Shown: positions 1 to 41,227, counted from the first letter of the stretch. The stretch: 64,000 bases of DNA from a virus (IMGVR_UViG_3300045988_157190:41562-105561); one strand, 5' to 3'. Notes: generated from the sequence alone by a model not told the origin. Numbers and translations are program-made.

Positions 1-999
1 TATTGGATAAAAACATTAAAAGCTACTATAAATCAGCCCAAGATTATAAGAAGTATCCCAGTAAATATAAAGAAAAACCTGGACTTCCAAGTTACAAAAA
101 GAGAGGTTCGGAATTTTCTTTATATTATACGAATCAAAGTTGTAAGATTGAAGACGGAAAAATTATTTTATCAAAAGAGCTTTCAATAAGTATTCCTCAA
201 TATGAGAAGTATTCTGATTTGATAAAAGATTTCCAACAAGTTAGAATAAAACCATTAAATAAAGGATATAAAGTCGAGGTAATTTACGAAGTTAAAGATG
301 TTGAAACACCTAAAGAGAGAAAAGAAAAAATTGCTTCAATTGATTTGGGGATTGACAATTTGGTAACTCTTATCAGTGAGGATTTTGTTATCCTTTTTAG
401 TGGTAAATTCATCAAATCATACAATCGATTTTTCAATAAGAAACTTGCTAAACTAAATAGTATCAAGGATTTGCAAAAGATAAAAGGAACAACAAGACGA
501 ATAAAGAAATTATATTATGATAGAGAACAGTACATAGAAGATGTCTTTCATAAAATTAGTAGAAAGATAGTTGATTTGCTTGTTGATTTTAAGATAACAA
601 AATTAGTTGTAGGCTATAACAAGGGGTGGAAACAAAATGTAAATATAGGCAAAAAAGAATAACCAAAAGTTTGTACAAATCCCTTTTGCGAGATTGGTTA
701 GTTACTTAGAATATAAATGCGAGTTAGCTGGTATTGAAATAGTTATTCATGAAGAATCATATACTTCAAAATGTGATTCATTAGCATTTGAGAAGATAGG
801 AAGACATAAGAGCTATTTAGGAAGAAGAAAGAAACGAGGATTGTTTCAATCATCAGTAGGAAAACTTATTAATGCTGATGTAAATGGTGCATTGAACATT
901 ATGAGAAAAGTAGTCGGTGATTCCTGTGAATCTATTCAAAGGATAATCGATAGAGGGTTATTGTTTAACCCAGTAAGGATTACGAATGTATTTTGTTAA
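1..999 (+). pseudogene. tnpB: TnpB-like RuvC nuclease (IS200/IS605-family accessory protein), copy 1; 5' end lies outside the window and the frame is broken at 651-662
   Basis: ORFs 3..662 and 694..999 are collinear with the intact copies at 25575..26786 and 40001..41188 (SIDLGIDN, EESYTSK, NADVNGALN = RuvC D-E-D). Frame 1 from nt 661 reads NQKFVQIPFARLVSYLEYKC, continuing GKK of the first ORF. Removing one A from the A6 run 651-656 gives GKKNNQKF, matching GKRNNQNF of copy 2. Confidence 0.8.
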
Positions 1000-1099
1000 G
1001 AAAGTATATTCTGAAACTTATAAAGAAATGTAATAGATTTAATATTTTCATAACATGTTTTCCTACTTTTTCACAAGTACAATTTAAAAACAACAAGAC

Positions 1100-1348
1100 A
1101 TGAGCAGAAAGAAAGAAACAGAGCTTCAAAAGCTCATTAGACATATTAATTCCATAGACCGTCCATTTGAGTTTTACGATGTGTCGAGATGTAATTTATT
1201 CTTTAACGGTACACTTAGAAAAACTATTACCTATCTTTACAGAGCGGGATTTATAGAACGGATTGAAAGAGGACGTTATAAACGCCTTAAAACAATCCCG
1301 GAGAATATAACTACTGTGGAGTTAGAAAAAATGGCTTACAAACGATAA
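1100..1348 (+). CDS. hypothetical small basic protein (possible DNA binder)
   Basis: 82-aa ATG ORF on the same strand as the flanking genes. No motif recognised. Confidence 0.5.
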   Translation: MSRKKETELQKLIRHINSIDRPFEFYDVSRCNLFFNGTLRKTITYLYRAGFIERIERGRYKRLKTIPENITTVELEKMAYKR

Positions 1349-1353
1349 AAGAT

Positions 1354-1641
1354 ATGGAATTTTCGACAATTTGCATTGTATTACTGGGAATAATAACGGT
1401 TTTCCTATTGGGGACTGTATTTGTTCTTTGGTTGAGAGTTAAGAACTTGAGACACTACTGCATGGCAATAGATTCAAGAATTGATTCTGTAAGACTTAAC
1501 TATCTCATAGGTTTTAGAAACCTCTTGATTCAGCAGGAAAAGTTTGAAGATGTAGAATACATAGACGAACTGATCAAAGACGAATATCCCGACATAAACC
1601 TAAAGGAAGTGACAGTAGAAGACATGCTTGATTTATTATAA
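1354..1641 (+). CDS. small membrane protein with a single N-terminal TM helix
   Basis: Hydrophobic N terminus FSTICIVLLGIITVFLLGTVFVLWL followed by an acidic tail. Starts 5 nt after the previous stop. Confidence 0.5.
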   Translation: MEFSTICIVLLGIITVFLLGTVFVLWLRVKNLRHYCMAIDSRIDSVRLNYLIGFRNLLIQQEKFEDVEYIDELIKDEYPDINLKEVTVEDMLDLL

Positions 1642-1662
1642 ACTTTTAAAAATCAATTGATT

Positions 1663-2094
1663 ATGGAGATTAAAGTAAAAAGAATAACACCTATTGATTA
1701 TCCCTATACAATAGGAAAGATGTACATTGATGAGACTTATTTTTGTGACACCTTGGAAGATCGTGTAAGAGACAAGGACAAGTCCGGTAAATTTGACAAC
1801 GGGGAAACAAAAGTATATGGCGAATCCGCTATTCCTTACGGACGATACAAAGTTGTTGTAAATATGTCTCCCCGGTTTAAAAGAGAACTACCCTTATTGC
1901 TGGACGTCCCTCATTTTGAGGGTATTAGAATCCACAGAGGGAATACAGACAAGGATAGCTCCGGCTGTATTCTTGTGGGGGAAAACAAGGTGAAAGGGAA
2001 AGTTATCAATTCCACACCTTATGAACAAAAAATTGTTGCTATTCTAAAAGAAGCACAGGACAAAGGGGAAGATATTTGGATCACAATTGAGTAA
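1663..2094 (+). CDS. DUF5675-like protein with a YkuD-like His / Gly-Cys motif (putative cell-wall L,D-peptidase)
   Basis: Pattern FCDTLED ... IPYGRY ... SPRF ... VP.F.GIRIHRGN ... SSGCILVG matches my recollection of the DUF5675 family. First ATG of the ORF is at 1663 (the ORF track starts at a TTG at 1657). Confidence 0.55.
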   Translation: MEIKVKRITPIDYPYTIGKMYIDETYFCDTLEDRVRDKDKSGKFDNGETKVYGESAIPYGRYKVVVNMSPRFKRELPLLLDVPHFEGIRIHRGNTDKDSSGCILVGENKVKGKVINSTPYEQKIVAILKEAQDKGEDIWITIE

Positions 2095-2228
2095 GAAATA
2101 TATACCTGTATAATTGTTTATAGTTAATCGAGTTGCAAACCCATTAAAAGAAAGGAGGTGAGAGCATGAAATAGCAAAAATCTATTCTAAATTCCTCTAT
2201 GAACAAATCTAAGTTTTAATAAAGGAGG

Positions 2229-2516
2229 ATGCCGAAAATCCTTAACAGAGTAGGTACATTAACAATCTCGTTGTTAGTAAATTACGTTAATCAAGAAAGG
2301 GCTTTGAACACAATCTGTAAAAATCGGTTCTTAGCCCTTTCGTCTTTAAAAACTAATAGTATGCCTTACGAAAAGAAGAATATTGAAACTCCCAAAAAGA
2401 AACCTATGATCATTCCGGTAAAGAATGCTGCTCCTGCTTGGACAAAGACAAAGGTACGGAACATTATGCGTGATTCCAAATATCCCGAACTTCATGGAGA
2501 GATGTATCTGGGTTAA
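2229..2516 (+). CDS. doubtful ORF (alternative start M45 at 2361)
   Basis: 95-aa ORF with a basic, low-complexity C terminus. Converges on and overlaps the minus-strand gene 2513..3028 by 4 nt. Its N-terminal half covers a 9-bp inverted repeat (gaaagggct / agccctttc). Confidence 0.2.
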   Translation: MPKILNRVGTLTISLLVNYVNQERALNTICKNRFLALSSLKTNSMPYEKKNIETPKKKPMIIPVKNAAPAWTKTKVRNIMRDSKYPELHGEMYLG

Positions 2517-3028
2517 GAATAAGCCCGGAAAATAGTTTTTGTATTGGGTATGATCGACCGGTCATATTTTGCTTTCAATCTGAACAAGATTTCCCTTTGA
2601 AGGGCTGATTCTTGGTTTTTCAGTTTCAATACTGTTCCCCGGTAGTCCGATACAATCCATTTTCCGTCTTTCTTTTCCAAAAGAGACAAACGCGATCTTA
2701 TATCCCCATTTACAAACACTTTTATAGATGGGGATATTTTTATTTTCGCGTCCTTTACATTTACCAGATACTTTTTCAGTTCCGGTAGCATTCTTTTCCT
2801 TCCATCACTGCCTGCATCACCTTCCAGATACTTTATAAACTTTTCTATTCCTTTTATCTTCCGGTCTATACTTTCTTCTTTTTCTCCCGACAGGGCTATT
2901 TTCAAATTCCGTCTTGTAATAGGTTTAATGATCGTACTTCCCCACAGGAAACCGTTGGAGGGACAAAGCTCGTTGAACCTTTCCACTCTTTTTATATAGA
3001 GGTTTATCTTTCTTTCCTTGTTCGTCAT
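2513..3028 (-). CDS. hypothetical protein
   Basis: 171-aa ORF, last gene of the minus-strand block. No motif recognised. Confidence 0.55.
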   Translation of the reverse strand: MTNKERKINLYIKRVERFNELCPSNGFLWGSTIIKPITRRNLKIALSGEKEESIDRKIKGIEKFIKYLEGDAGSDGRKRMLPELKKYLVNVKDAKIKISPSIKVFVNGDIRSRLSLLEKKDGKWIVSDYRGTVLKLKNQESALQREILFRLKAKYDRSIIPNTKTIFRAYS

Positions 3029-3040
3029 AGCTCCCTTTCC

Positions 3041-4180
3041 CTATTTAAGTCGTAAAGCCTTTAATCTGTCCTTTACAGAGGCTTTTCTTTCATCATCTAT
3101 ATAAGTAGCCTCCTGCACTTCATAAGGCGTCATTTCGTCTAAGAACTTCTTGTTTTGCTTTTCCAGTTCTTCCCAATTGGCTGCACGGATCAGATCGCCC
3201 GGAAGCATAATCTTTTCCCTACCCAGAATAGTTTTATTGAAACCATTGAAGTCCTTGTAGTAGCTTGTTGCAAGCTGATGTACCAATACAGTAGGGTCAA
3301 GACCTGATTTTGCGGCGACAAGGCCTATTATGATAGAATTGATAGGAAGTGTTCGAAATACACGAGAAACGTTTTCTTGTCCATGCAAGGTAGCGACAAT
3401 ATCTATTTTCCCGTCTACGGTCAACTTTAGTTCATTGCCTTTTACTTCTTTCCGGGCTTGCTCCAGCATGTTTCTTATTTCCCGCTCGAATATCAATGCC
3501 TTTTCTTCCTTTTCTCCTGCAAGGTATTTTTGATACCGGTGCTGTAGGTCTATTATGATAGTGTTTATGATCTGTAGCCGTCCGGCTTCCGTTGCTACCT
3601 TATATTGATTGGATGAAGCAAGAAATACGGCACGTTTGCTTTCGATTTCCGCTTTCTTTTTGGCGAAGATGGCTTGCAGTTCCTTTTGGGTAAGTTTTAT
3701 CTTCTTTTCTTCCTTTAGGATTTTCTGGACATCATCAACGCCGTTCATCTCCCCAAACAGTTTCACGATATAGGACATGATCTCCGGCGTGACGGAAGAA
3801 AGCATTTCTTTTCGATAAATGTCGTTGAATACCTCTTTGCACCTCTTTATTTCTTCTATGAGAGGCATAACATACATTTCTTTGTGCCGTTGTGCTTTCT
3901 TTACGTCCGATTCCTTTCCACCGTGACGAAGGATAAAACCCTTTGCAGAATAGCTTTTTAAGTCGGCCGTGATCTCCTCCCCGTCCTTACCTTCAAAGAC
4001 AAAGAAACGGTAAGACGATTCAGATAGTGCCCTTTCTGCCGTTTCCAAAGCGACAAAAGCGTTTTTTAGCTCACTGGAAGCGGTCTGGATCACTTCTGGA
4101 GCTTGTTCTATTATTTCCACAAAGTCCTTTTGGGAAATAGCCGGTAAATCTTTATTAGTAAGTTGTTTCCCCTTCTGCAT
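3041..4180 (-). CDS. hypothetical protein, helical/coiled-coil rich
   Basis: 379-aa ORF with ATG start, tightly packed with its neighbours. No catalytic motif recognised. Confidence 0.65.
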   Translation of the reverse strand: MQKGKQLTNKDLPAISQKDFVEIIEQAPEVIQTASSELKNAFVALETAERALSESSYRFFVFEGKDGEEITADLKSYSAKGFILRHGGKESDVKKAQRHKEMYVMPLIEEIKRCKEVFNDIYRKEMLSSVTPEIMSYIVKLFGEMNGVDDVQKILKEEKKIKLTQKELQAIFAKKKAEIESKRAVFLASSNQYKVATEAGRLQIINTIIIDLQHRYQKYLAGEKEEKALIFEREIRNMLEQARKEVKGNELKLTVDGKIDIVATLHGQENVSRVFRTLPINSIIIGLVAAKSGLDPTVLVHQLATSYYKDFNGFNKTILGREKIMLPGDLIRAANWEELEKQNKKFLDEMTPYEVQEATYIDDERKASVKDRLKALRLK

Positions 4181-4325
4181 TGTTCAATTCTTCGATTTGA
4201 GATTTGGAAAGCTGTGCACTATTATATTCAAAACATTCTGATTTGTCCACATAAGGACATTCGATTTTGTATCTACAGTTATCGCAAACTATAGAAGGTT
4301 TGTCTACAGACTTTTGTAACTTCAT
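4155..4325 (-). CDS. small Cys-rich protein (56 aa), not in the supplied ORF track
   Basis: Hand translation gives MKLQKSVDKPSIVCDNCRYKIECPYVDKSECFEYNSAQLSKSQIEELNNAEGETTY. It has a CxxC...C...C pattern and overlaps the start of 3041..4180 by 26 nt. Confidence 0.4.
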   Translation of the reverse strand: MKLQKSVDKPSIVCDNCRYKIECPYVDKSECFEYNSAQLSKSQIEELNNAEGETTY

Positions 4326-4384
4326 TTTGACAAAAATTTAATGGTTGTTTTTATTATGTGACAAAACTACACTAAAGAAAGGAC

Positions 4385-4427
4385 AAAAACAAAAGTCCTT
4401 ACCTATACATCGCGTACCGGTAAGGAC
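4385..4427 (-). terminator. intrinsic terminator candidate downstream of 4549..4935
   Basis: Perfect 9-bp stem gtccttacc (4395-4403) / ggtaaggac (4419-4427). On the minus strand it is followed by TTTTGTTTTT (plus-strand 4385-4394). Confidence 0.5.
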
Positions 4428-4548
4428 AAAATAATAACATAAACTAATTAAACTACTAAATACCAATTGAATAACTAAACTAATAATATAACAAACATAA
4501 AATTTTCTACACATAGCAAAGATATACAAATCTTTTTCTTTGGAAAGG

Positions 4549-4935: not shown

Positions 4936-4939
4936 AGCG

Positions 4940-18458: not shown

Positions 18459-18671
18459 GACAAAACAAAATGTTACATTTTTGTCGAAATTCAGTCAAAA
18501 ACTTTTAGTGTCAAAATAACACCAATAAGAACAACTGCGATAGGAACAATGATTATTTCATTGTCGGAAGCGCATACTTTTGCCAAACTATCTATTGTAA
18601 GATATACCATTACTGATTTGACTAATCTGCTTTCTGTTTTCCTATCTTTTCTCATGCCGGCACAAAGATAA

Positions 18672-19584: not shown

Positions 19585-20763
19585 ATGACAATAGACGAAA
19601 AATATACGAAGCTGAAAAGCATTTTCTTTAAAGATTTTGTAGTAGTGACAGAGAACTACAATTGCCGAGGAACTAATATCCCAGCAAGTAAAGTGACAAA
19701 GAGTAACACAACAGGGCTGAAAATCTTATATTGGGGAGACGGGACGATCAATATGGCGGAATACCTACATTATTTATATGTAGAAGCTGTGCTGGGGGAT
19801 AAATCTTGTGTAGATAAAATTTACTGGTGTCTGAAATCAATAGAAAGACTTTCTTTGAGTGCCTATGAGGATGAAAAGATGAAGAATCCAAAAGTATATT
19901 TTAAATACGAGCCTGGATTCTTCCTTAGAGACGACATATCGGTAAATTCAAAAGACCTTTTTAATGCTTACAAAATAGAAAGCGGTTACTCGAACGGTAT
20001 CGAACTTGAAAATGAAGACCCCTGCTTTTCTCCTTTTGTATCACAAGACCAAATTTGGAACTTACTTCCATCTCTTACATTAATAGCGGAGGGGATGGAA
20101 GATCACAAAACAGGCATTTTAGCAAAAGAAATACTGAAAAACATCCTTTCCTATGTTTCTGATCACGGACATACCATTTACAATCCCTATTTCAGTGCAT
20201 TGAAACATTTTTGGACGTACCTTCCTTCTATGAACACAGAAAAAGTAAAACCATGGGATAGGGTGTATGATAGGAACATTCATTTGAAATACACAATCAA
20301 AGTAAAAAGAGGTGCTAACAACTGGTATTTTGCTTATGGATTCAGAAAAACGCTCAAAAAATTCATTCCAGAAGCAAAATTGAACGGTTTTCTGACTTTT
20401 TTGTACGGTTTATGGTATATTCCATTCATTTTTCTTGCTGATAGGGTATATTTCCCTATTGTTACCCGGTTCGGAGCAAAAAGAAAAGACAACTCCTATT
20501 ACTGCATGTCGTCTGCCGGTGATGTTTGGTATTCCGGGAGAAAAAGTTATCTCAAAAGGGTATGCAAGAAGTTCAACAAGGATAAGGAATATACCTTTCC
20601 CGCGCTTGCAGAGTGCATGAAACAAGAAAAATGGCAATATCTGAACCTGGAAGAAATAGAAAAATGGCTGAATGAGTATGAATTTGACGAAAATTCGTTG
20701 GAATCACCCGTCAAATTCCTAACTTTGTCATGTTACTTGAAGTTGATCCAATCGCTTGCTTAG
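19585..20763 (+). CDS. hypothetical protein (392 aa)
   Basis: ORF 19468..20763 trimmed to MTIDEKYTKL, downstream of the hairpin. No motif recognised. Confidence 0.65.
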   Translation: MTIDEKYTKLKSIFFKDFVVVTENYNCRGTNIPASKVTKSNTTGLKILYWGDGTINMAEYLHYLYVEAVLGDKSCVDKIYWCLKSIERLSLSAYEDEKMKNPKVYFKYEPGFFLRDDISVNSKDLFNAYKIESGYSNGIELENEDPCFSPFVSQDQIWNLLPSLTLIAEGMEDHKTGILAKEILKNILSYVSDHGHTIYNPYFSALKHFWTYLPSMNTEKVKPWDRVYDRNIHLKYTIKVKRGANNWYFAYGFRKTLKKFIPEAKLNGFLTFLYGLWYIPFIFLADRVYFPIVTRFGAKRKDNSYYCMSSAGDVWYSGRKSYLKRVCKKFNKDKEYTFPALAECMKQEKWQYLNLEEIEKWLNEYEFDENSLESPVKFLTLSCYLKLIQSLA

Positions 20764-20784
20764 ACAATCAATTCTTTCATGTTT

Positions 20785-20822
20785 TCTCCCGTTCTTCTTT
20801 ATTGAGGGACGGGAGTTTTTGT
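20785..20822 (+). terminator. intrinsic terminator candidate
   Basis: tctcccgt / acgggag stem followed by TTTTTGTTT. Confidence 0.55.
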
Positions 20823-20836
20823 TTCCATTAACGAGA

Positions 20837-20858
20837 GTGTAACACTAAAATGTTACAT
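20837..20858. promoter_or_regulatory. palindromic operator-like site GTGTAACACTAAAATGTTACAT
   Basis: Same TGTAACA-N6-TGTTACA architecture. Lies upstream of the TActTTTG box at 20907-20914 and the gene at 20951. Confidence 0.5.
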
Positions 20859-20950
20859 TTTAAAGTAATTTAACTCCATAGACTGCATTTTGTACAAAAA
20901 CGATATTACTTTTGCAGCACAATCAAGTAACAACAATAAAAATAACAATC

Positions 20951-21262
20951 ATGAAACCTTTCAATTTAGAAGAAGCAAAAGTAGGCAAACCCGTCTGCAC
21001 AAGAAATGGTAGGAGAGTGGAAATCATTTCTTTTGAAAATCCGAGCAACAACAACTATCCTATTTTGGCAAAAGTATTTTTCGGTAAAGATGATTATGAA
21101 GAATTTACCTTTACAGAAAGTGGAACGTTTTTCGTTGCTGGTAAAGAATCTGAAGCAGATTTAATGATGACAGAAGATGAAACGGAAATAGAAATCCCTT
21201 CACTCTGGACACAATCTTGTACAGAAGAAAACACAAAGATCAATTATACAATCAAAAACTAA
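20951..21262 (+). CDS. hypothetical protein, paralogue of 14440..14820
   Basis: ORF 20912..21262 trimmed to the ATG (MKPFNLEEAKVGKPVCTRNG). Confidence 0.6.
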   Translation: MKPFNLEEAKVGKPVCTRNGRRVEIISFENPSNNNYPILAKVFFGKDDYEEFTFTESGTFFVAGKESEADLMMTEDETEIEIPSLWTQSCTEENTKINYTIKN

Positions 21263-21270
21263 TAGAAGAT

Positions 21271-21597
21271 ATGGAAGTAAAGATGACGGAAAGACAAGCG
21301 TTGCTTTATGAAGCGAGAAAGAAAAAGCTGTTTAGGGCTTTTATTATGACCTGTATGTGGGGAGGGTTTGGGCTTTATTACACCGGTAAACCCATTATCG
21401 CATCCATCCTGACCATCTGTACCCTGTACAATCTTTTAGGAGCTGCAATCACCTTATTTAAGGTCGATCTGGTAAACTGTGTCGAATACCTACTTTGGTT
21501 TACAGGATTTTGGATTTTCTCAATCCTGATAGCAGTTCCTTTGGCAGAGGATACAAACAACAATATCAAACGTGAAATCATCAAAAACAACAAATAA
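21271..21597 (+). CDS. membrane protein, TM2-domain-like
   Basis: MTCMWGGFGLYYTGKPIIASIL resembles the G.fG.h.FY.G motif of TM2 domains. Trimmed to MEVKMTERQ. Confidence 0.45.
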   Translation: MEVKMTERQALLYEARKKKLFRAFIMTCMWGGFGLYYTGKPIIASILTICTLYNLLGAAITLFKVDLVNCVEYLLWFTGFWIFSILIAVPLAEDTNNNIKREIIKNNK

Positions 21598-21598
21598 C

Positions 21599-22192
21599 AT
21601 GAAAAGAGTAATTTTTATCAGTGCATTATTTACACTTATTTCGATGTGTGGATGCAAGCAGGAAGCCTCTAAAGAATCAGAAATTACCAAAGAGCAAGAA
21701 ACCTCCAAAGAATTGAACATCTATCAAATTATGGATATTCAATTTAAAATATTGGATGCTTCTTCTAAAGATTTTTTGGTTGAAGAAGCAGATAAACTCA
21801 TTCCAAAAGAAGCCTACAGCGAAAGGGTTGCTATAGAGACTGGAGGAAAAGCTATAAAATATAGCCTCAATACAGGTTATAAATTAAGTGTAAACGAGGT
21901 TTTTGATGAAAAATCAGGGATAGTTCCTTATACAAGTCTCGAAGCAAAGTTCGATATTTATGATATGGAAGATACAAAAACCTTTATAGATGGGATTCTG
22001 GATTATCTGAAAGAAAAGAAAAGGTTAAAGAAAGAAGGGATATCCGAGGTTGTAGATAAACCAGATTACAAACTTATTGCCCTTATTTGGGACGGTGGAT
22101 TCAGTTCAATTGAAATGAAACAAAACGGAGCAATTGGATTTGACATTATCTTTATCAACTATTACGACATGAACAAACAGAAAAAGAAATAG
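21599..22192 (+). CDS. putative lipoprotein
   Basis: Trimmed to MKRVIFISALFTLISMCGCKQE, a signal peptide with a lipobox-like Cys. Confidence 0.6.
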   Translation: MKRVIFISALFTLISMCGCKQEASKESEITKEQETSKELNIYQIMDIQFKILDASSKDFLVEEADKLIPKEAYSERVAIETGGKAIKYSLNTGYKLSVNEVFDEKSGIVPYTSLEAKFDIYDMEDTKTFIDGILDYLKEKKRLKKEGISEVVDKPDYKLIALIWDGGFSSIEMKQNGAIGFDIIFINYYDMNKQKKK

Positions 22193-25322: not shown

Positions 25323-25537
25323 GAGATGAGATAGCTAAAAAGTTGAAGATTGGGAGTGATTCGCGGTAACTTCCCTTCTTTTCTTGAAGGCTATGTGAGG
25401 TTGATGGGAAATGACTTTAGGGTGTTTCCCAAAATTAAGGAGTTAAATTTCCCCTATAAGAATCGTTCCTAAAAAATAAGTCCCGAAGTAGGGCAAATGG
25501 CGGCTTATAGGATGGTTTACTCCTTTTTTTGTTTTTA
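25323..25537 (+). ncRNA. candidate structured non-coding RNA immediately 5' of tnpB copy 2 (ends approximate)
   Basis: TAtaTTTG box at 25310-25317. GC-richer, ORF-free sequence with helices gggaaa/tttccc (25406-25411 / 25425-25430) and aaggagttaaa/tttactcctt (25437-25447 / 25516-25525). The latter is followed by TTTTTGTTTTT. Confidence 0.3.
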
Positions 25538-25574
25538 AATAGGAAATTTCAAATATTCTATTTAAATTTGCACC

Positions 25575-26786
25575 ATGTATTTAGTAGAACAACATATTAT
25601 TTCTGTAAATGATAAGAGGTATAAAGATTTAGATCGAATTTGCTTCTTATCCAAAAATTTGTACAATGCAGCTTTATATGAAATAAAGCAAGAGTTCCTT
25701 CGTACGGGTAAATGGATAAGATACACTTCTCTTGATAGAAAATTAAAAGATGAAGATAATTTTGATTATAGAGCTATAAGTGCGGCTTCATCTCAACAAA
25801 TTCTTATGTCTTTAGACAAAAGTCTAAAATCTTATTTTTTTGCTATCAAAGCATGGAAAAGAGATAACAAGAAATTTACCGGTTGTCCTAAGTTTCCAAA
25901 ATACAAACATAAGACTAAAGGTAGAAATGTGTTCCCTTACTCTTATGCACAGTTTAAGCACAGAGATAATTATATTTTCTTTCCTAAGAAAGAAGGTCTG
26001 TCGCCTTTGAAAACAAATTGTAAAGAAGGTTCTGTTAAACAAGTTCGATTTGTTCCTAAACCAGATTGTTATATTATAGAGGTTGTATATGAATCAAAAG
26101 TAAAAGAACAGCTTCCTGATAACAATAGGGTTATGTCTATTGATTTGGGCGTAAATAATCTTGCTTCTATTGTTACTAATGTAAGTAAGAAAGCTATTTT
26201 GATTGATGGAAGAAAATTGAAATCCATAAATCAGTATTACAACAAAAAGAAGTCAAAAATCCAACAACAGCTAAAAAAGACAAATGGAAAAGAAAATTCG
26301 AGGCGGTTAATGTCTCTAACAAGAAAAAGAAACAATAAAGTGAAAGATTATCTTCATAAAGCAAGTAAAGAAATTATCAATATTTGCTTGGAAGATAATA
26401 TAACAACGTTGATAGTAGGACATAATGATGGATGGAAGCAAAATACCAATCTTGGTAAAAGAAACAATCAGAATTTTGTAAGTATTCCATTTGAAACGTT
26501 TATATCAATGTTGAGATATAAATCAGAAAGACAAGGACTAAGGTTTGTTGAAGTAAACGAATCTCATACGTCAAAATGCAGTTCTTTTGATTTAGAACCA
26601 GTGGAACATCATGATCCTTACGTTGGTAAAAGAGTAAAAAGAGGACTTTTTAAAACAAAAGATGGAATTTTGCTCAATGCAGATATCAACGGAAGTTACA
26701 ATATCATGAGAAAAGTAAAAGGGGATGCAGCAATGCCACCCTATACAGGGTTTGGGTATAACCCAGTTAAGAAATTTATTAACTAA
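25575..26786 (+). CDS. TnpB-like RuvC nuclease, copy 2 (intact)
   Basis: 403 aa with MSIDLGVNNL, NESHTSK and LNADINGSYNIMRKV in TnpB order, plus GWKQNTNLGKRNNQNFVSIPF. No CxxC pairs between RuvC-II and RuvC-III. Confidence 0.85.
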   Translation: MYLVEQHIISVNDKRYKDLDRICFLSKNLYNAALYEIKQEFLRTGKWIRYTSLDRKLKDEDNFDYRAISAASSQQILMSLDKSLKSYFFAIKAWKRDNKKFTGCPKFPKYKHKTKGRNVFPYSYAQFKHRDNYIFFPKKEGLSPLKTNCKEGSVKQVRFVPKPDCYIIEVVYESKVKEQLPDNNRVMSIDLGVNNLASIVTNVSKKAILIDGRKLKSINQYYNKKKSKIQQQLKKTNGKENSRRLMSLTRKRNNKVKDYLHKASKEIINICLEDNITTLIVGHNDGWKQNTNLGKRNNQNFVSIPFETFISMLRYKSERQGLRFVEVNESHTSKCSSFDLEPVEHHDPYVGKRVKRGLFKTKDGILLNADINGSYNIMRKVKGDAAMPPYTGFGYNPVKKFIN

Positions 26787-26938
26787 TAAATACTTAGGAT
26801 GTCGTGAGATGAATGGTTTTTCGTGAGAAAGGCTTCTTTTGAAGTAACACTGTTCACCGCGTCTTTGAACGTAGCTGTAAGCTCCTTCTTTTAAAGGCTC
26901 TGCCGTTACCTTTGATCCCTGTGCGGAGGGAGATCGGC

Positions 26939-30024: not shown

Positions 30025-31728
30025 GTGAGTAGGAAAAGAGACAAAAATAAAAATCAAGGAAAGTCAGACCTGTTAAAGGGTCTGACCAGCCTTTCTTTGG
30101 AAGATATTGTAGGATTGCAGAAAACTCTTCCTACTTTGCTTCAATCCAAATTACAACAGATGTCCCGGTCTGACAACTTGGGGGATTTGGTGAAAGCTAA
30201 TCTTTACATGGGGAACATCAACCAAAGACAGGACGATGTAAAGGCTGTGTTCTTCAACCCGGACGAAGCAAGCGATACGGGAAGGGGTTACAAAGATCCT
30301 AACTTTTACGGTTCTATGCCGTTCGAAGTGCTTCGGAGAATGGGGGACATCTTTGTTGTTCGGGCTGTTGTCAATACCCGTGTCGAACAGGTTCAGAACT
30401 TTCTCCATTTCAGTACGGATGAACAGAAAGAAGGATACACTATTAGAAGGAAAAGGAATCCTTTTGAGAAGGTAAGTGCAGAACGCTCAAGAGAAGATCA
30501 GATTAAAATTAGCTATATCAGAAAGTTTTTGGAAGAAGGCGGTTTTCACGACAAATGGGAATCATTTGATACATTCCAAGACTTTGGGAGAAAAGTTGTG
30601 TTTGATAGCCTTACTCTTGATCAGCTTGCATTTGAAATAGTAAGGGATAGATCGTGGAATCTGGCACGTTATCGTGCTGTAGACGCTTCTTTGATACGTT
30701 TTCTTGATAGTATCGATCCGAAGTTCCGGGAAGAATTTGAGCAGTATCGGTTCAAAGGCTATTTACCAAAATATTGTATGTGCTGGCAAGGTCAGATCAT
30801 GCAGCATCCTGTTACGCATGAAAGTGTTATCTTTTACCCTTGGGAGCTGGGTATTGGTATCCGTAACAAATCCACCAACATATATAAAAACGGGTACGGA
30901 ACATCTGAACTGGAAACACTGTCAAGCGTTATGACATGGATTTTGTGGGGGTTTGAATACAACGGCCTGTATTTTTCTAAAGGGTCTAATCCTAAAGGAA
31001 TTATTAATGTTAAGAATCCGAACATATCGCAGGCTTCTTTAAGTGAGTTCAGACAGGCATGGCAGCAGACGATGGTGGGGGTTCAAAATTCTCATAGAAC
31101 GCCTATTATCAATGGGTTAGACCTTCAATGGGTTGATTTATCCAAAAACACTAACCGTGATATGGAGTTTAGTGAGTGGGTAAAATTCCTACTTGTTATG
31201 ACTTGTGCTGTTTATCGTATTGATCCGTCAGAGCTTGGATTCCAATTCAAAGATCAGACAAATATCTTTGGACAAGCTGGACAAAAGGAACGTTTACAAC
31301 ATTCAAAAGACAAAGGACTAAAACCTATTCTTGTGTTCTTACAAGAGGTGATCAATTATTATCTTGTATCAGAACTGGATGAAGATTTTGAGTTTGTCTT
31401 TACAGGTGTAGATGCGGAAGATGAAGGAAGACAGGTTGAGATTGATGCTAAGAAAATTCAAAACGGTATGGTTTGTCTGGAAGATATTTTTGAAAAATAC
31501 TCTGGACGTAAATTCAACCCAGAAACTGATACCATTTTGAATCAATCCTACCAGCTTCAAAAACAATATCAGATGCAGCAAGCTATGTACGGAGGTGATG
31601 CGATGAACGAAGAAGTGGATCGACAGATCGCGTCAGAAGACAAAGAAGATACACAGAAATCGTTTGATTCCAACCCTATCATGAGTGCTGCAATGTCTTA
31701 CATTGAAAAGAATTGGGGAGAAAAGTAA
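30025..31728 (+). CDS. portal protein
   Basis: 567 aa with a GTG start, directly upstream of a Mu F/SPP1 gp7-like gene (the canonical portal-gp7 order). Size and acidic C terminus fit. Confidence 0.65.
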   Translation: MSRKRDKNKNQGKSDLLKGLTSLSLEDIVGLQKTLPTLLQSKLQQMSRSDNLGDLVKANLYMGNINQRQDDVKAVFFNPDEASDTGRGYKDPNFYGSMPFEVLRRMGDIFVVRAVVNTRVEQVQNFLHFSTDEQKEGYTIRRKRNPFEKVSAERSREDQIKISYIRKFLEEGGFHDKWESFDTFQDFGRKVVFDSLTLDQLAFEIVRDRSWNLARYRAVDASLIRFLDSIDPKFREEFEQYRFKGYLPKYCMCWQGQIMQHPVTHESVIFYPWELGIGIRNKSTNIYKNGYGTSELETLSSVMTWILWGFEYNGLYFSKGSNPKGIINVKNPNISQASLSEFRQAWQQTMVGVQNSHRTPIINGLDLQWVDLSKNTNRDMEFSEWVKFLLVMTCAVYRIDPSELGFQFKDQTNIFGQAGQKERLQHSKDKGLKPILVFLQEVINYYLVSELDEDFEFVFTGVDAEDEGRQVEIDAKKIQNGMVCLEDIFEKYSGRKFNPETDTILNQSYQLQKQYQMQQAMYGGDAMNEEVDRQIASEDKEDTQKSFDSNPIMSAAMSYIEKNWGEK

Positions 31729-31729
31729 C

Positions 31730-31927
31730 GTGAATGTAAGATATGTCAAAAATATCAAGGTCGAAAAGATGCCTTTAGTGTCAAATGTACATCATCATGT
31801 TGATCCTATGCGTTACCCAAAAGTACAGGAAGGATATGAAGGTATGGCGCAAGTTATCTTTTCGACACAGATAAATAATATGTTGATGGATTTGACGAAG
31901 AAAATAGTAGAACAAAAATCTAAGTAA
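31730..31927 (+). CDS. doubtful small ORF between the portal and MuF genes
   Basis: GTG at 31730 just after the portal stop. An alternative ATG is at 31769. Confidence 0.3.
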   Translation: MNVRYVKNIKVEKMPLVSNVHHHVDPMRYPKVQEGYEGMAQVIFSTQINNMLMDLTKKIVEQKSK

Positions 31928-31929
31928 GT

Positions 31930-32883
31930 ATGCTATTCACACCGGAAGAGATACAGCAGTTGTTTTTCATTGTCGATTATCGTATTGCTCGTGTAATTGC
32001 CGATGTGCTGGGTAAGGAATATCTTTCCCAAGAAGACATAGATATGCTGAAAAGATTTGGCTTTGATTTAAAGACAGAAGTTCTGAAAATACCACCTTAT
32101 TGGCAAGCATTCATATTTGGACGGTTAGCAGCCATACTTTCTCCTGCGCAGCTTTCTTCGCTTGATTTTAACGACTTAAAACAATATGTTGAAAAGGAAC
32201 AATACCCGGCATTGACAACAAGGGAAAAGGCAGAATACAATGCGTCGGCTATGCGTTCTTATTCCTATATAAAGGGAATGGGAAATAAAATAAAGGATTC
32301 TCTTTCTTCTACTATATCGGAAGAAGAAATGAAAATAGCTGTTGCGGAACGAGAAATGGAAGTTGAAACAGCTATTAAAGAAGAACTTTCAGAAGGGGTT
32401 ATAAAAAGGAAATCTGTTCAGTCTATAGTAAGTGCACTTGGACATAGATTGGATGAATGGAATCGTGACTGGGGACGTATAGTCGCCACCGAAATGGAGA
32501 ACATTTTTCAGATAGGTACGGCTCAAATGATAATGAAAGAACATGGCATCCATGCTAAGGTGTATAAGCAAACAATGCCACAAGCCTGCCGGTATTGCTT
32601 AAATGCCTACACTACAAATGGCTATGGCTCTAAGCCCGTTATTTTTGATTTGTCCGAATTGATTGCCAACGGTACTAACATAGGTAAAAAGTCAAAAGAC
32701 TGGAAGCCTGTTTTAACAAATATTCACCCTTTTTGCAGGTGTATGTTAAGACATGTTCCAGATGGATATGAATGGGATGACAAAACACAGTCATTTGAAC
32801 CTAAAAAAGTAGATGAAAGTAAGCGGGTTCAGAGAAAATCAAAGGTAAAAATAACTGTAGGTACAAAATATTTCGAAGTGTAA
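31930..32883 (+). CDS. head morphogenesis protein, Mu F / SPP1 gp7 family
   Basis: RDWGRIVATEMENIFQIG ... QACRYCLNAY ... IHPFCRCMLRHVP matches the Phage_Mu_F signature (RTE ... C..C ... HP.CRC). Confidence 0.8.
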   Translation: MLFTPEEIQQLFFIVDYRIARVIADVLGKEYLSQEDIDMLKRFGFDLKTEVLKIPPYWQAFIFGRLAAILSPAQLSSLDFNDLKQYVEKEQYPALTTREKAEYNASAMRSYSYIKGMGNKIKDSLSSTISEEEMKIAVAEREMEVETAIKEELSEGVIKRKSVQSIVSALGHRLDEWNRDWGRIVATEMENIFQIGTAQMIMKEHGIHAKVYKQTMPQACRYCLNAYTTNGYGSKPVIFDLSELIANGTNIGKKSKDWKPVLTNIHPFCRCMLRHVPDGYEWDDKTQSFEPKKVDESKRVQRKSKVKITVGTKYFEV

Positions 32884-35425: not shown

Positions 35426-35465
35426 AGTGTTATAAATACGTTTATTTCAATTTCAACCAATCAAA

Positions 35466-36206: not shown

Positions 36207-36223
36207 TTTTTATACATAATGTT

Positions 36224-36910: not shown

Positions 36911-36949
36911 GAAGTAATTCGATCGAATAAATATAAAGATTATAGAAAG

Positions 36950-38458
36950 ATGGACTTGTATAACTATAATGATTTAGCTGCTTTTGGCGGTGCTGGTAAT
37001 GTTGCCGATGTGTTGAAAGCAATGGAAGCCGGTTTACAAACCGGTATGCAGTACGACAATCAGATCAACAATGGTGGTGGTCTGAAAGTTGAATCTTTGG
37101 ATGCTTACATCAAGGTTTTGGCTAACCGCTTGAACCAGTTGGTTGTTTACAACGAAATGCCGAAACAGAGAATTGAGAATACGGTTCACCAGTACAACCA
37201 GTTGTACAAATATGGTGAAGAAATTGGTATTTTCAATCTTGAAGGTGAAACACCGGAAGAAACAGATACTCAATACATCCGTAAGTCAATCATCTCTAAG
37301 TTTATGGGCGTTACAGGACAGGTAACTGATCCGGCTATGCTTGCTAAACTTGCCGGTGGTATGAACATGTACACTCGTGAGGTACAGAATAAGACCACTT
37401 TGCTTTTGACTTTGATTGACACTCGTTTGACGGATGCTGATTCTACTTGTATCGCAGAACAGTTTGATGGCATCTTCCGTCAGCACATGATGGGTGTAGC
37501 TGCTACTGACCGTGGTTCTACGGAAGGTATGAGCACAGAACAGATTTTGGATGCTTACTATGGCTCACAGGCTGTGATTGATGCACAGAATGGTATCTTG
37601 ACTGATGCTTTGGTTGAAGATGCTGCTGATCGCGTTGTAAACGTTTACAACGGTTATATCGACCGTATCGTTTCTGCACCGGTTGTGTTCAACAACTATG
37701 TGAAGAAATTCCATGAATCAAAACGCGTTGTTGTTGGCATGTCTAACAGCGTTGTAGGCGCAACAATGGGACAGTCTGTAAACGACATCATGACGCAGTT
37801 CGGTAAGGTTGCTGTTAAAACAGACAAGTTCTTTGACGTTCGCCGTCCGATCAAGGCTTCTGCTACAGCTTCTTCTCCGAAGGCTCCGGGTATTCCTGTT
37901 GCTGGTGGAACTAAGTCTGTTGTTGTTGCCGATACAAAAACCAACTTCGTATTACATGCCGGCTCTTATGGCTACTTGGTAACAGCTAAGAACCGTTATG
38001 GTGAATCTGCTCCTTTGAAATTGACGGATACTGCTCTGGCAGTTGCAGCTAATCAGTCTGTAGATTTGCAGTGGACAGCTCCAGTTGGAGGTGCTTATGC
38101 TCCTACTTGCTACGTTGTTTATCGTACTAAGAAAGTAACTGCTTTGACAGATACGACAGAATACTATCCTATCTTCACTATTCCGGCTTCTATGCTGGCT
38201 GCTGGATATGATGGTGCTGCTGCAACAAAAGTACGTGACCGTAACCGTATCATTGCAGGTACGAAGTCTGCTCTGATTTACTATAACGACAGCCAGATCA
38301 ACGAATACTTGCAGTTTGGTGACACTCGCAAACTTGACTTTGCAATCACCGCTCCGTCTCGCAGATTCGCTATCTTGAACTACGGTACTCCAGTTCTGTA
38401 TCAGTCGGCTAAGATTTGCCGTATTATCAATATCGGTGATGAAGGTTTGGGTGCATAA
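36950..38458 (+). CDS. major capsid protein
   Basis: 502 aa after protease and scaffold, followed by a strong hairpin terminator. Gly/Ala/Thr-rich composition and biased codon usage suggest high expression. Confidence 0.65.
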   Translation: MDLYNYNDLAAFGGAGNVADVLKAMEAGLQTGMQYDNQINNGGGLKVESLDAYIKVLANRLNQLVVYNEMPKQRIENTVHQYNQLYKYGEEIGIFNLEGETPEETDTQYIRKSIISKFMGVTGQVTDPAMLAKLAGGMNMYTREVQNKTTLLLTLIDTRLTDADSTCIAEQFDGIFRQHMMGVAATDRGSTEGMSTEQILDAYYGSQAVIDAQNGILTDALVEDAADRVVNVYNGYIDRIVSAPVVFNNYVKKFHESKRVVVGMSNSVVGATMGQSVNDIMTQFGKVAVKTDKFFDVRRPIKASATASSPKAPGIPVAGGTKSVVVADTKTNFVLHAGSYGYLVTAKNRYGESAPLKLTDTALAVAANQSVDLQWTAPVGGAYAPTCYVVYRTKKVTALTDTTEYYPIFTIPASMLAAGYDGAAATKVRDRNRIIAGTKSALIYYNDSQINEYLQFGDTRKLDFAITAPSRRFAILNYGTPVLYQSAKICRIINIGDEGLGA

Positions 38459-38490
38459 CTAAGACGTATTTAGTCTCGGAATTTTATAAA

Positions 38491-38535
38491 GGGAGGGAAA
38501 GGTTTTTGAAACACCTTCCTCTCCCTATTTTATTT
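38491..38535 (+). terminator. terminator candidate after the capsid gene
   Basis: gggagggaaagg ... ccttcctctccc is an imperfect stem followed by TATTTTATTT. Confidence 0.55.
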
Positions 38536-38555
38536 ATCAATAAATCATATTTCGT

Positions 38556-39122
38556 ATGAAAAAGATTGTATCAACAGTATATAAAAACACTACCATTCAG
38601 TTTTTGAATGAGCTTGTGGAGTTTGAAAACGGGAAAGCCGAAGTAAAGGACGAAACTTGGGAATACATCAAAAATGGCGGTTTCTCCGGTATTGCTTTGG
38701 AAGAAGAAGCTAATACGCTTGAAAAGGAAAAATCTGAATCTGAAAAAGATACTGATGAAGCTCTGAAAGTTCTGAAAGAAGAATACGAGTTTGAAATTGC
38801 TCGTTTGAACGGTATTATCAAAGATAAGAACAAGAAAATCGAACAATTGGAGCAGTCTATTGACGTTTGGAAAAAAGAGGTTGAAAGACTGTCTAACGGT
38901 GGTCAGCCGAAAGAAACTGTGGAAGAACCGGTTAAAGAAGAAGCCGGCGCAACAGAAGAAGAAATTGCTTCTTTAAAGGAAGATATGTCTAAAATGACTT
39001 TTGAGGATTTGAAGGCACTTGCTATTGAAAACGGAATGAGCAAACAGAAAGCCGGAAGATTCAAAGAAGAAAGTCAGAAAGATGAACTGATTGATGCTAT
39101 AATTGCGTTACCCAAAAAGTAA
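38556..39122 (+). CDS. acidic coiled-coil protein with a SAP/Rho-N-like C-terminal motif
   Basis: MTFEDLKALAIENGMSKQKAGRFKEESQKDELIDAI resembles a Rho_N/SAP helix-extension-helix. Confidence 0.55.
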   Translation: MKKIVSTVYKNTTIQFLNELVEFENGKAEVKDETWEYIKNGGFSGIALEEEANTLEKEKSESEKDTDEALKVLKEEYEFEIARLNGIIKDKNKKIEQLEQSIDVWKKEVERLSNGGQPKETVEEPVKEEAGATEEEIASLKEDMSKMTFEDLKALAIENGMSKQKAGRFKEESQKDELIDAIIALPKK

Positions 39123-39137
39123 AAAAGACATTAAGTT

Positions 39138-39944
39138 ATGCCGGGACAACTGATTTTTACAGTAAAGTACAAGAAAAATACGGGTTCTGTCATTTCCGTT
39201 GCGGAGATGTGGAACAATTACCTGTACGGTATCGCTATACAAGCCGGTACGGGGACTTCTTTTTCTGATGAATCACTTAGAACTTATTTGAGTGCTGCAC
39301 AGAGAGAGATCGAGAATTATTTTAATCTCAAATTTGTAAAGCAATTAGTTGAATCGGAAACACATTCTTATTACAGAACAGATTATTTCCAACAATTTCC
39401 TATCATTCAAACTAACTGCCCGGTAAGAGTTCCACTTGCACTTACAGGTATGCTTAATAAGATGGAGCAGATTATTTACCCGCAAGGTTGGCTTAGTTGT
39501 GAGAAAGATATGGACGGGATAGGAAAACGAAGAATGAGTGTTGTTCCTACCGGTGCAAATTCGGTCAATGCGAACGCAGATGTTATCCTTACCGGAATGA
39601 CAACTCAGATAGGCTTCCAGCGGTTTACAAACATACCAGATTATTGGGATATTCAATATATAACCGGTTTTGATTTGGATAAAATGCCTGCCGATTTGAT
39701 TAATCTTGTTGGTAAACTTGCTTCGTTCGGCCCGCTTAATATTGCCGGAGATATGATATTCAGTTTACCCGGTATAGCTTCTATGCACTTGGAAATAGAT
39801 GGATTAAGACAATCTATCAACTCTACCGCTTCTGCTGAAAATGCAGGTTACGGGGCACGCTTGAAACAGTATCAAAAAGAAATAGAGGAAACTGTAGGGC
39901 GGATAAAACTCGTGTACGATGAATTTAGGTTTTTAGTATTATAA
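39138..39944 (+). CDS. hypothetical virion (head-completion/neck region) protein
   Basis: 268-aa ORF in the structural operon. Confidence 0.6.
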   Translation: MPGQLIFTVKYKKNTGSVISVAEMWNNYLYGIAIQAGTGTSFSDESLRTYLSAAQREIENYFNLKFVKQLVESETHSYYRTDYFQQFPIIQTNCPVRVPLALTGMLNKMEQIIYPQGWLSCEKDMDGIGKRRMSVVPTGANSVNANADVILTGMTTQIGFQRFTNIPDYWDIQYITGFDLDKMPADLINLVGKLASFGPLNIAGDMIFSLPGIASMHLEIDGLRQSINSTASAENAGYGARLKQYQKEIEETVGRIKLVYDEFRFLVL

Positions 39945-41227
39945 GGAGGGTAATTTGTTTATTTTGTTTTTATTGAAATTTCAAATAGTAAAATTGATTG
40001 ATGAGATTGGTTGAAAAACATATTGTTAAAGATAACCGATTTGAAGATATTTGCCTCAAATCAGGATTGCTATATAATTATGTCCTGTATAATGTGCGTC
40101 AAGGTATCTTCAATAAAGAATATCTGAAAGAATATGATCTTTCTACTAAACTTTGCAAAGAAAATCAATTTGATTTTAGAAATTTGCCATCATCTATTTC
40201 TCAGCAAGTAGTTGGACAAGTATTCAAGTCTATCAATTCTTGGATAAAGTTGAAAAAGGATTTTGGAAAGAATCCAGCTAAACACAACAATCGTAAGCCT
40301 CACCTTCCTTCTTACAAGAAAGGAAAGAAACAGAATATGGTAGTCTTTACAACTTCTGCTTGTAGAATCAAAGATGGATATATTTACTTCGTTAAAAATA
40401 TCATTCAACCAATTAAAACTAAAATAGGAAACAATAAACTATGTCAAGTTAGAATTATACCACAAGCTACTTGTTATGTAGTTGAAGTGATTTACGAAAA
40501 GAAAGAACAGGATTTGAATTTAAACAAAGATAATGTTCTTTCGATTGATTTGGGATTGAATAATTTATGTTCATGTATTAACAATGCAGGAAAACAACCT
40601 TTCATTGTAAACGGACATATTATCAAATCTTTTAATCAGTGGTACAATAAGAGAAAAGCTAAATTAATGTCTTTTGCAGGAGACAAAGGGACTTCAAAAA
40701 GACTTAGACAACTTAACAATTATAGGAATTTTTGGATAGAAGATCATATCCATAAGGTTAGTAGATTTATTATAAACTATTGTATTGACAATAATATCGG
40801 TAGTCTTGTAGTAGGACTGAATAAAGGATGGAAACAGAAAATTAATCTTGGAAAGAAAACAAACCAGAAATTTGTTGAGATTCCTTTTTCAAGGCTTATA
40901 GATAAAATTTCCTATAAATGCAAATTAGTTGGAATTAGTTTTTATCTTAGTGAAGAATCATACACATCAAAGGTTGATCATTTAGCTTTTGAAGAATTAG
41001 GAAAACATGACGCTTACTTAGGCAAAAGAAAGAAACGTGGGTTGTTCCAAAGTTCTGTAAATAAATTGATTAACGCAGATATCAATGGAGCTATTGGAAT
41101 AGGTAGAAAAGTATTCAGTGATTCTTATGTAAGTAGGATAATTGATAGTGGGTTAGCGTTTACCCCGGTCAAAGTAAACATTGCATAGTGTGGAAATTTG
41201 ATAAATGAAATTTAAAATTTTAGTAAC
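39945..41227 (+). mobile_element. minimal tnpB-only insertion between two structural genes
   Basis: tnpB copy 3 fills the whole gap between the stop at 39944 and the GTG at 41228. Only 56 nt of 5' flank and 39 nt of 3' flank remain. The 5' flank shares TTTTGTTTTTA ... GAAATTTCAAATA with copy 2. Confidence 0.45.
40001..41188 (+). CDS. tnpB: TnpB-like RuvC nuclease, copy 3 (intact)
   Basis: MRLVEKHIV ..., LSIDLGLNNL, SEESYTSK and INADINGAIGIGRKV. It is closest to copy 1 (KRGLFQSSV.KLINAD). There are no Cys residues between RuvC-II and RuvC-III. Confidence 0.85.
   Translation: MRLVEKHIVKDNRFEDICLKSGLLYNYVLYNVRQGIFNKEYLKEYDLSTKLCKENQFDFRNLPSSISQQVVGQVFKSINSWIKLKKDFGKNPAKHNNRKPHLPSYKKGKKQNMVVFTTSACRIKDGYIYFVKNIIQPIKTKIGNNKLCQVRIIPQATCYVVEVIYEKKEQDLNLNKDNVLSIDLGLNNLCSCINNAGKQPFIVNGHIIKSFNQWYNKRKAKLMSFAGDKGTSKRLRQLNNYRNFWIEDHIHKVSRFIINYCIDNNIGSLVVGLNKGWKQKINLGKKTNQKFVEIPFSRLIDKISYKCKLVGISFYLSEESYTSKVDHLAFEELGKHDAYLGKRKKRGLFQSSVNKLINADINGAIGIGRKVFSDSYVSRIIDSGLAFTPVKVNIA

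Follow-up and report, generated by a model that had tools for sequence, protein, structure and literature searches.

Three tnpB genes in a human gut myovirus

The 64,000 nucleotides of IMGVR_UViG_3300045988_157190:41562-105561 (the window, meaning the whole stretch of DNA analyzed) come from a human gut myovirus of ~105 kb and contain three tnpB genes, which are the subject of this report together with the insertion sequences they appear to belong to. All lie on the plus strand: copy 1 (1..999) comprises two open reading frames (ORFs; 3..662 and 694..999) that form one broken gene, while copy 2 (25575..26786) and copy 3 (40001..41188) encode proteins of 403 and 395 amino acids (aa), respectively. 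A preliminary description made from the sequence alone had placed three solo TnpB-like nuclease genes here, and ORF calls, curated profiles and a fold search bear this out. All three copies passed the curated cut-offs of the Pfam profiles OrfB_IS605 and Cas12f1-like_TNB, and both full-length copies passed NCBIfam guided_TnpB ("RNA-guided endonuclease TnpB family") with 196 and 148 bits (cut-off 100). Searching the PDB by sequence alone gave weak matches, and the relationship was seen through the fold of an AlphaFold2 model of copy 2 (mean pLDDT 87.1, pTM 0.71). This model matched AsCas12f, ISDra2 TnpB, ISFba1 TnpB (IS607) and mimivirus Fanzor2 (E 1e-16 to 1e-11, TM ~0.65), the matched structures including TnpB entries 8h1j, 8exa and 8iaz (with Cas12f, E 1e-16 to 1e-13). 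The profile and structure searches proposed in the preliminary description were thus both carried out, and both place the proteins with TnpB.

The proteins are 47% (copies 1 and 3), 39% (copies 2 and 3) and 37% (copies 1 and 2) identical, in keeping with the earlier view that they are not recent duplicates. Copy 2 is divergent, as had been noted, but the implied closeness of copies 1 and 3 does not stand at 47% identity. The N terminus M[YR]LVE[QK]HI common to both full-length copies is real. A Pfam sweep of the 51 window ORFs of at least 100 aa found no transposase, recombinase or integrase domain, which agrees with the original observation that the window lacks a transposase.

About 80 codons at the 5' end of copy 1 are cut off by the window start, and the frame is broken by a single extra A in the homopolymer run 651-656. 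The gene is intact in a 98.6%-identical genome (L280:2758-3996; 412 aa, the protein beginning MKMKLVYKF), so the break may be an assembly error. Directly upstream of copy 1 in this nearest genome there is no tnpA, the two upstream genes being unrelated to it. A tnpA just beyond the window start, which the preliminary description had named as a finding that would undo its reading, is therefore unlikely.

IS607-type insertion at start codons: copies 1 and 3

In related gut-phage contigs, TnpB proteins 78-88% identical to copy 1 are encoded directly downstream of an IS607 TnpA, and those ~64% identical to copy 3 also adjoin one. The sub-branch L163-L169 provides a 1,879-bp element with a 194-aa gene overlapping the tnpB start, and in L163 the product of this gene is an IS607-family serine transposase TnpA (NF033518, E 1.9e-49, above cut-off). 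An adjacent serine TnpA, the mark of IS607 elements, is thus seen beside relatives of copies 1 and 3 and not beside the window copies. Since tnpA is absent from the window and the nearest genome but present beside relatives, copies 1 and 3 are non-autonomous IS607-type derivatives.

Empty and filled pairs of IS607-type sites share only a 2-bp core between element ends and target, with no target duplication. Empty sites of the L163 type have an AT core (caaattggatattg-AT-gggtagg and ttgcccaaaaattg-AT-aatcagg) and a copy-3-type empty site has a TG core (ttaata-TG-gaxaagata); the IS607 mechanism likewise uses a 2-bp core, GG (PMC6188088). Copy 1 ends on the right at 1000..1056 (+; ..AATATTTTCATAACAT), a segment conserved among relatives whose terminal AT is the putative 2-bp crossover core. 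The copy-1-type right end (..TTTTTCATAACAT) is strictly conserved over 34 flank combinations with ~23 distinct right flanks, and in 11/23 sites the terminal AT and the flanking G form an ATG. From its position 3' of the right end, by analogy with TnpB/IS607 architecture (PMC11061315, PMC10711439), the guide template of copy 1 is predicted at 1057..1076 (+).

Copy 3 lies in the structural block, with the major head protein gene (36950-38458) on one side and the tail sheath gene (43691-45334) on the other; the same block contains the portal gene (30025-31728). Its location in the late structural operon had been recognized before and is upheld. Its left end and promoter region (39950..40000, +) are a non-canonical variant common to the L103 group. 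Its right end (41189..41230, +; ..AATTTTAGTAACGTG) closes with a GTG (41228-41230) that doubles as the start codon of the gene that follows (41228..42019). Among GenBank phages the one close relative is MT835500 (55.5 kb, human faeces, ~91% identical; compared with the window by blastn plus junction sequences); it is empty here and reads ATG TCA AAG AGT.. where the window reads ..AGTAACGTG GCA AAG AGT... The predicted guide template of copy 3, again assigned by position, is 41231..41250 (+) and corresponds to codons 2-7 of the downstream gene; 19/20 of its bases equal those of the MT835500 empty allele (ATG-TCAAAGAG..). The copy-3-type right end (..AATTTTAATAACGTG) is strictly conserved, and at 16/17 independent sites its terminal NTG begins an ORF of 60 or more codons, the other two frames doing so at none. 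Together with the 11/23 ATG junctions of the copy 1 type, these NTG starts show that IS607-type elements land on start codons and rebuild them.

Several further observations concern these elements. MT835500 carries a minus-strand IS607-type element, with a tnpA remnant and a broken tnpB, at a site that is empty in the window (18644..18648). Two different IS607-type TnpB elements (L118:154-1338 and L118:3001-4188) are separated by 1.6 kb and stand on either side of one member of a tandem pair of paralogous phage genes (481 aa), each right end being fused to a paralogue start. The regions upstream of copy 3 (39950-40000) and copy 2 (25540-25574) both contain GAAATTTCAAATA; as the two proteins also share M[YR]LVE[QK]HI despite 39% overall identity, the two element types may have swapped left ends and 5' regions.

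The copy 2 family has IS1595-type ends

Complete elements of the copy 2 family are ~1,320 bp long and are bounded by 22-bp terminal inverted repeats (GGTAACTATATACCAGTTTACA and TGTAAACTTGTATATAATTACC) and an 8-bp direct target repeat. For 7 independent insertions, the predicted empty site (left flank, one 8-mer and right flank) was found in other phages with 35-36/36 bases identical. The window itself holds such sites. Positions 20926-20961 are identical in 36/36 bases to the empty site of the elements in L020/L027 (TAA + AAATAACA + flank, 20937..20959, +), and at 31927..31934 (+) the 8-mer GTATGCTA, preceded by TAA, is empty where MT835500 has a complete element with repeats and 8-bp duplication. 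This MT835500 element (20543-21861) is 92.8% identical to the copy 2 element but sits at a different site, and MT835500 is empty at the window copy 2 site.

Directly 5' of the 8-mer, at -11..-9, a TAA is found in 21/25 distinct left flanks (background 2.3% per position), and the three bases that follow it are mostly A. It is the stop codon of an upstream gene with a long ORF in only 2 of the 21 cases, and this explanation was discarded. The next gene usually begins 10-12 nt past the right end. Among TnpB elements with clean duplications, the TAA lies on the 5' side of the gene in 14/14, versus 3/6 transposase-bearing elements in what is a small sample; this orientation bias is a weak hint that TAA doubles as the target-adjacent motif (TAM). 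A staggered cut by TnpB itself was rejected as the source of the duplication, as a new site has no matching guide and elements with these ends but no TnpB produce the same duplication.

Other TnpB subfamilies in these phages are bounded by repeats of the same type. When metagenomes were scanned for such repeats (pattern GGTRAYTATATANNANYTTRCA), repeat pairs 1.2-5.9 kb apart were found to enclose an IS1595-family DDE transposase of ~305 aa (PF12762, 9e-43 and 2e-45; NF033547, 2e-59 and 2e-60), which was encoded in ~30 of the 120 loci returned with copy-2-type repeats. Perfect 8-bp duplications after TAA surround the transposase-bearing elements of L367 and L405, and the left end of L415 agrees with that of the copy 2 family in 21/22 bases. 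The contig with L415 measures 147,387 bp, exactly as long as a gut-phage contig in IMG/VR on which a copy-3-type element is found. The repeats common with transposase-encoding elements and the 8-bp duplication indicate that the copy 2 family is an IS1595-type element, probably mobilized in trans, in which an IS607-lineage tnpB and its RNA have replaced the transposase as cargo. The TnpB of copy 2 is 41.5% identical to that of Helicobacter pylori IS607, relatives at 41-46% identity adjoin an IS607 TnpA, and by sequence the protein belongs to the IS607 clade.

The preliminary description had set the three genes in the frame of IS200/IS605, with its Y1 TnpA, and this did not survive: none of the copies is of that type. 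No Y1 transposase was found in the window or beside the relatives examined, and for the copy 2 family the inverted repeats and 8-bp duplication also rule out IS200/IS605 elements with their hairpin ends.

Some IS1595-type elements with these repeats also carry passenger genes. One of them (L388:852-6734) encodes the transposase, a P63C-domain protein and a 1,235-aa restriction-modification protein with N6_Mtase, Methylase_S and HSDR_N domains, a defence-type gene as transposon cargo. Two miniature inverted-repeat transposable elements (MITEs) have copy-2-type repeats and an 8-bp duplication, one of 175 bp in Chryseobacterium jejuense (L200:4901-5075) and one of 112 bp, preceded by TAA, in an Alistipes metagenome-assembled genome (L227:3058-3169). 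Their presence in Bacteroidota chromosomes suggests that the IS1595-type transposase has a reservoir in cellular genomes, and gives a hint of the host phylum; searching plasmids with the MITE gave nothing useful. A partial match to an IS1595-family transposase (42% over 122 aa, cut by the locus end) is also present in a 104.5-kb window-like phage contig (L023:6677-7036), ~2.4 kb downstream of a copy-2-family element.

Nesting and rearrangement were also seen. In L074 (4244-4665, -), a copy-2-family element interrupts another TnpB gene, which runs in the opposite direction, is of the classical "MIKAFKYRLSPTKEQ" type and itself has the same left-end repeat, so that several TnpB lineages use IS1595-type ends. 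The right junction of L054 (..AATTACC TTACC TTACC ATCACT..) has tandem TTACC tips, and equal left flanks with different right flanks occur in L043/L054/L057/L064 and in L053/L065. Such junctions are compatible with deletions beside the right end, or with elements at separate sites having recombined.

In the window, copy 2 is flanked by the left 8-bp target duplication (ATAGGATG, 25507..25514, +), a decayed left end (25515..25574, +) that lacks the outer ~15 bp of the inverted repeat, a match to the omega-RNA-like scaffold without the terminal hairpin and ..TTACC tip (26570..26793, +), and the right 8-bp duplication (TTAGGATG, 26794..26801, +). The duplication pair ATAGGATG/TTAGGATG has diverged; the single-copy empty site of MT835500 reads GTAGGATG. 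A TAAATTTG box in the left end resembles the Bacteroidota -7 promoter element and may serve as a promoter. Since the outer parts of both inverted repeats have been lost along with the terminal hairpin, the element can presumably no longer move. At the same site in L014 and L021, the right end (~4214-4260) is composite and holds a left-end repeat in direct orientation (..TATAGGTAACTATATATCAGTTTACTATATACATAATTACC), which suggests nested or recombined ends.

Structured RNA, catalytic residues and selection

For the final 240 nt of copy-2-family elements the consensus fold has 66 pairs, with 99.1% of cells paired. Compensatory change is seen at nine pairs, including four in a single helix within the coding region; slid controls gave at most 3. 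A comparable pattern, though less strong, is found for the 3' RNA of the copy 3 family, whose terminal CGTG pairs with an upstream CATG. An IStron or a RAGATH-18 reRNA was ruled out, as Rfam returned no intron and no match. The structured RNA at the 3' end of tnpB is most likely a guide (omega/reRNA), to judge by its position and conservation and by what is known of TnpB biology (PMC8612924, PMC10055086, PMC11061315, PMC13565253).

D190 (SIDLG), E329 (nESyTS) and D370 (NADxN) are invariant across 30 aligned sequences with identities as low as 39%, and where the canonical RuvC-II glutamate would stand there is an invariant glycine (VGxN..WKQ). The "alternative" glutamate has been defined as lying two residues before YTS (PMC10711439), and under this definition E329 is such a residue, as in Fanzors. 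Of the earlier assignment, the RuvC triad in TnpB order holds, with the correction that the E in ES[YH]TSK occupies the alternative position and not that of the canonical RuvC-II glutamate. The zinc-finger cysteines are mostly lost. The RuvC-I motif is D-L-G (S-I-D-L-G) versus the Fanzor hallmark DPG, and with a phage as the host in place of a eukaryote or eukaryotic virus these proteins are not Fanzors.

The residues bear on whether the proteins could be nuclease-dead, TldR-like RNA-guided regulators, repressing either a host gene or the phage gene next downstream. Phage-encoded regulators derived from TnpB do exist (PMC10705468) and the elements sit right at gene starts. We nevertheless regard this explanation as very improbable: TldR proteins have lost RuvC residues or are truncated at the C terminus, while here D190, E329 and D370 are invariant, the proteins are full-length and the model has a complete RuvC/TNB region. 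The elements are also mobile, and each new site would bring a new guide.

Selection on the genes was gauged by the ratio of nonsynonymous to synonymous substitutions (dN/dS). Among orthologues of copy 2 at the window site, all of which have decayed ends, dN/dS is 0.05-0.09 with dS up to 0.46; between these orthologues and complete copies it is 0.07-0.12, and for copy 3 it is 0.11-0.12 (0.12 against L084). TnpB is therefore kept under strong purifying selection (dN/dS 0.05-0.12), even where the element ends have decayed. This weighs on the notion that the copies are inert hitch-hikers, decaying remnants of insertion sequences that are tolerated between genes. Copy 1 is frameshifted, the fourth copy in MT835500 is broken, the ends of copy 2 are decayed and the window lacks a transposase, all as such a notion would have it. 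Against these stand the dN/dS values, the invariance of the catalytic residues, the compensatory changes that keep the 3' RNA structure and the intact copy 1 of the 98.6%-identical genome, and we consider it improbable.

Relatives at dozens of sites in gut phages

Relatives in IMG/VR numbered 279 for copy 2, 235 for copy 3 and 75 for copy 1, on phage contigs of 40-160 kb and at dozens of distinct sites. In the protein collection, copy 2 homologues of at least 72% identity were all on contigs of at most 163 kb, and a 61% relative was also in a phage context. In this collection, close relatives are thus confined to phage-sized contigs. The alignment with related genomes lacking the inserts, suggested in the preliminary description, yielded the element ends and exact empty sites. 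Judging from these comparisons, each copy belongs to an insertion sequence family that has moved recently among gut phages. The earlier preference for domesticated genes over passengers of an active insertion sequence is contradicted by relatives at dozens of sites, exact filled/empty pairs and autonomous partners.

What remains of that preference is the explanation that the genes are a domesticated phage weapon, fixed TnpB genes that cut competing phages or host DNA and no longer belong to any transposon. The strong purifying selection at the copy 2 site, where the repeats are gone, is in its favor (dN/dS 0.05-0.09, dS up to 0.46), as are the many copy-3-type copies without any left end and the fact that predicted guides would cover the 5' ends of phage genes. 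Yet the families vary in presence and position between ~91%-identical phages, complete ends and autonomous partners exist, a guide assigned by position would be the phage's own flank and would target insert-free alleles only, and gene conversion from mobile copies could explain the conservation. Taken together, this makes the weapon an unlikely account of the three genes.

A proposed model of selfish RNA-guided homing

We give a probability of roughly 70% to the explanation that the three insertion sequences in the window are non-autonomous and fall into two kinds by mechanism, that each carries a tnpB gene and a structured RNA overlapping its 3' end, and that they spread by selfish homing. 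Insertion of copies 1 and 3 over an AT or TG core would be carried out by IS607 TnpA from autonomous relatives in co-infecting phages, and the right end would restore an ATG or GTG so that the phage gene downstream remains expressed. Complete elements of the copy 2 family would be moved to TAA plus 8 bp by an IS1595 transposase acting in trans. The guide, the 3' part of the RNA, would take its sequence from the flank adjoining the right end, and TnpB would then cut the empty allele in a sister or co-infecting genome, with TAA or ..ATG/..TGAT as the motif directly 5' of the target. In the filled allele, ..TTACC, ..AACGTG or ..AACAT stands where the motif would be. This allele would be spared, and because it lacks the target motif TnpB would cut insert-free genomes only. 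Recombinational repair would copy the element into the cut allele.

That TnpB serves homing in IS605/IS607 elements is established (PMC10055086, PMC11061315, PMC13565253), and by analogy with these we infer that selfish RNA-guided homing is the most likely role here. The preliminary description had already favored selfish homing nucleases; the idea fits the element anatomy and, by inference, is still the best functional guess.

A number of points weigh against this explanation. Copy 1 is frame-broken in the window, the left boundary of copy 3 is uncertain and Rfam finds no known omega/reRNA family here. As a TAA is likewise found before one MITE without TnpB and before two elements with a transposase, it may reflect no more than the target preference of the transposase. 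The window copy 2 may be inactive as a guided nuclease despite its conserved ORF, since the terminal hairpin of its RNA is missing and CTT replaces TAA before the site. Purifying selection, too, could work via the phage and not via the element.

A more far-reaching version is put forward tentatively, as a possibility that falls somewhat short of probable. A DDE transposon would have captured an IS607-lineage TnpB with the alternative glutamate, together with its RNA, as its only cargo, and the TAM of this TnpB would be matched to TAA, giving a prokaryotic counterpart of the Fanzor route. Along with the start-codon-restoring IS607 elements, these would act as self-reprogramming homing nucleases that cut the 5' ends of genes in insert-free competitors.

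Other features of the window

An ORF of 2,681 aa (54874-62919, +) matches the baseplate wedge family phrog_6 over its N-terminal 450 aa, the remainder being unmatched. A DUF805b RNA motif was detected with Rfam at 2222-2256 (+; 52 bits versus a gathering score of 35.6, E 6e-12), in the intergenic region between the ORFs 1657-2094 (+) and 2513-3028 (-).

Comparison with known systems and significance

Copies 1 and 3 share with IS607 elements (H. pylori IS607, ISFba1 and ISXfa1) a serine TnpA gene that in relatives lies upstream of tnpB and overlaps it, the 2-bp core without inverted repeats or duplication, a TnpB of ~390-410 aa and the fold match to ISFba1 TnpB (8iaz). They differ in lacking tnpA in the window, in the AT/TG core, in a target of ..TGAT or ..(T/C)ATG and not GG (IS607) or AGGAG (the ISFba1 TAM), and in a right end that rebuilds the start codon of the next gene. 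The missing RAGATH-18 match, the alternative glutamate and the loss of most zinc-finger cysteines set them apart as well.

The copy 2 family resembles IS1595 elements with passengers in its repeats, which begin GGTAAyTATATA, in the 8-bp duplication and in having relatives with DDE_Tnp_IS1595, with or without passengers; in those that share the repeats, the passengers are a P63C-domain protein and a restriction-modification methylase. Unlike these elements, it has no transposase, tnpB is its sole gene and the last omega-RNA-like hairpin overlaps the right repeat. The subgroup is presumably the ISNwi1/ISNwi1+ group (ends ggnnatTAT, 8-bp duplication), and we take IS1595 to belong to the superfamily of the eukaryotic Merlin elements. 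The closest parallel to this arrangement is with Fanzor1 and Fanzor2* in eukaryotic cut-and-paste elements, which likewise have an alternative-glutamate TnpB of IS607 lineage as sole gene, repeats and a duplication, occur in viruses, and have the right repeat within the guide-RNA scaffold region. Here, however, the host is a prokaryotic virus, the motif is D-L-G and not DPG, eukaryotic features are absent and the 8-bp duplication is of variable sequence. IS1341-type "solo tnpB" elements of the IS200/IS605 group are also tnpB-only and ~1.3 kb long, but they have subterminal hairpins, no inverted repeats or duplication, and a Y1 HUH TnpA, none of which is seen here. Finally, the Seg and Mob homing endonucleases of T4 are likewise encoded by selfish genes that lie between others in the structural and replication modules of a myovirus, and they presumably spread in mixed infections in a like manner; in the present case recognition would be RNA-guided and re-set at each insertion site, and the elements also transpose.

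To our knowledge, TnpB in prokaryotes is known only with IS200/IS605 and IS607 transposases, and its capture by DDE cut-and-paste transposons, the step that produced Fanzors, has been reported from eukaryotes and their viruses only. Reviews describe prokaryotic TnpB elements as having neither inverted repeats nor target duplications, and no description of an IS1595-TnpB cargo link in bacteria or phages was found in a literature search. What is new here is thus an IS1595-type carrier of TnpB, and IS607 elements in phages that restore start codons. The former would mean that the same capture as in Fanzors took place in phages, and offers a tractable bacterial system for asking in what way guide RNA and TAM become adjusted to a transposase that is new to them. 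The latter illustrate how a transposon may be tolerated harmlessly inside a tightly packed structural operon. If homing is confirmed, the elements could yield compact genome editors with AT-rich TAMs. They would also be selfish elements of phages that acquire a new target with each insertion, which bears on phage mosaicism.

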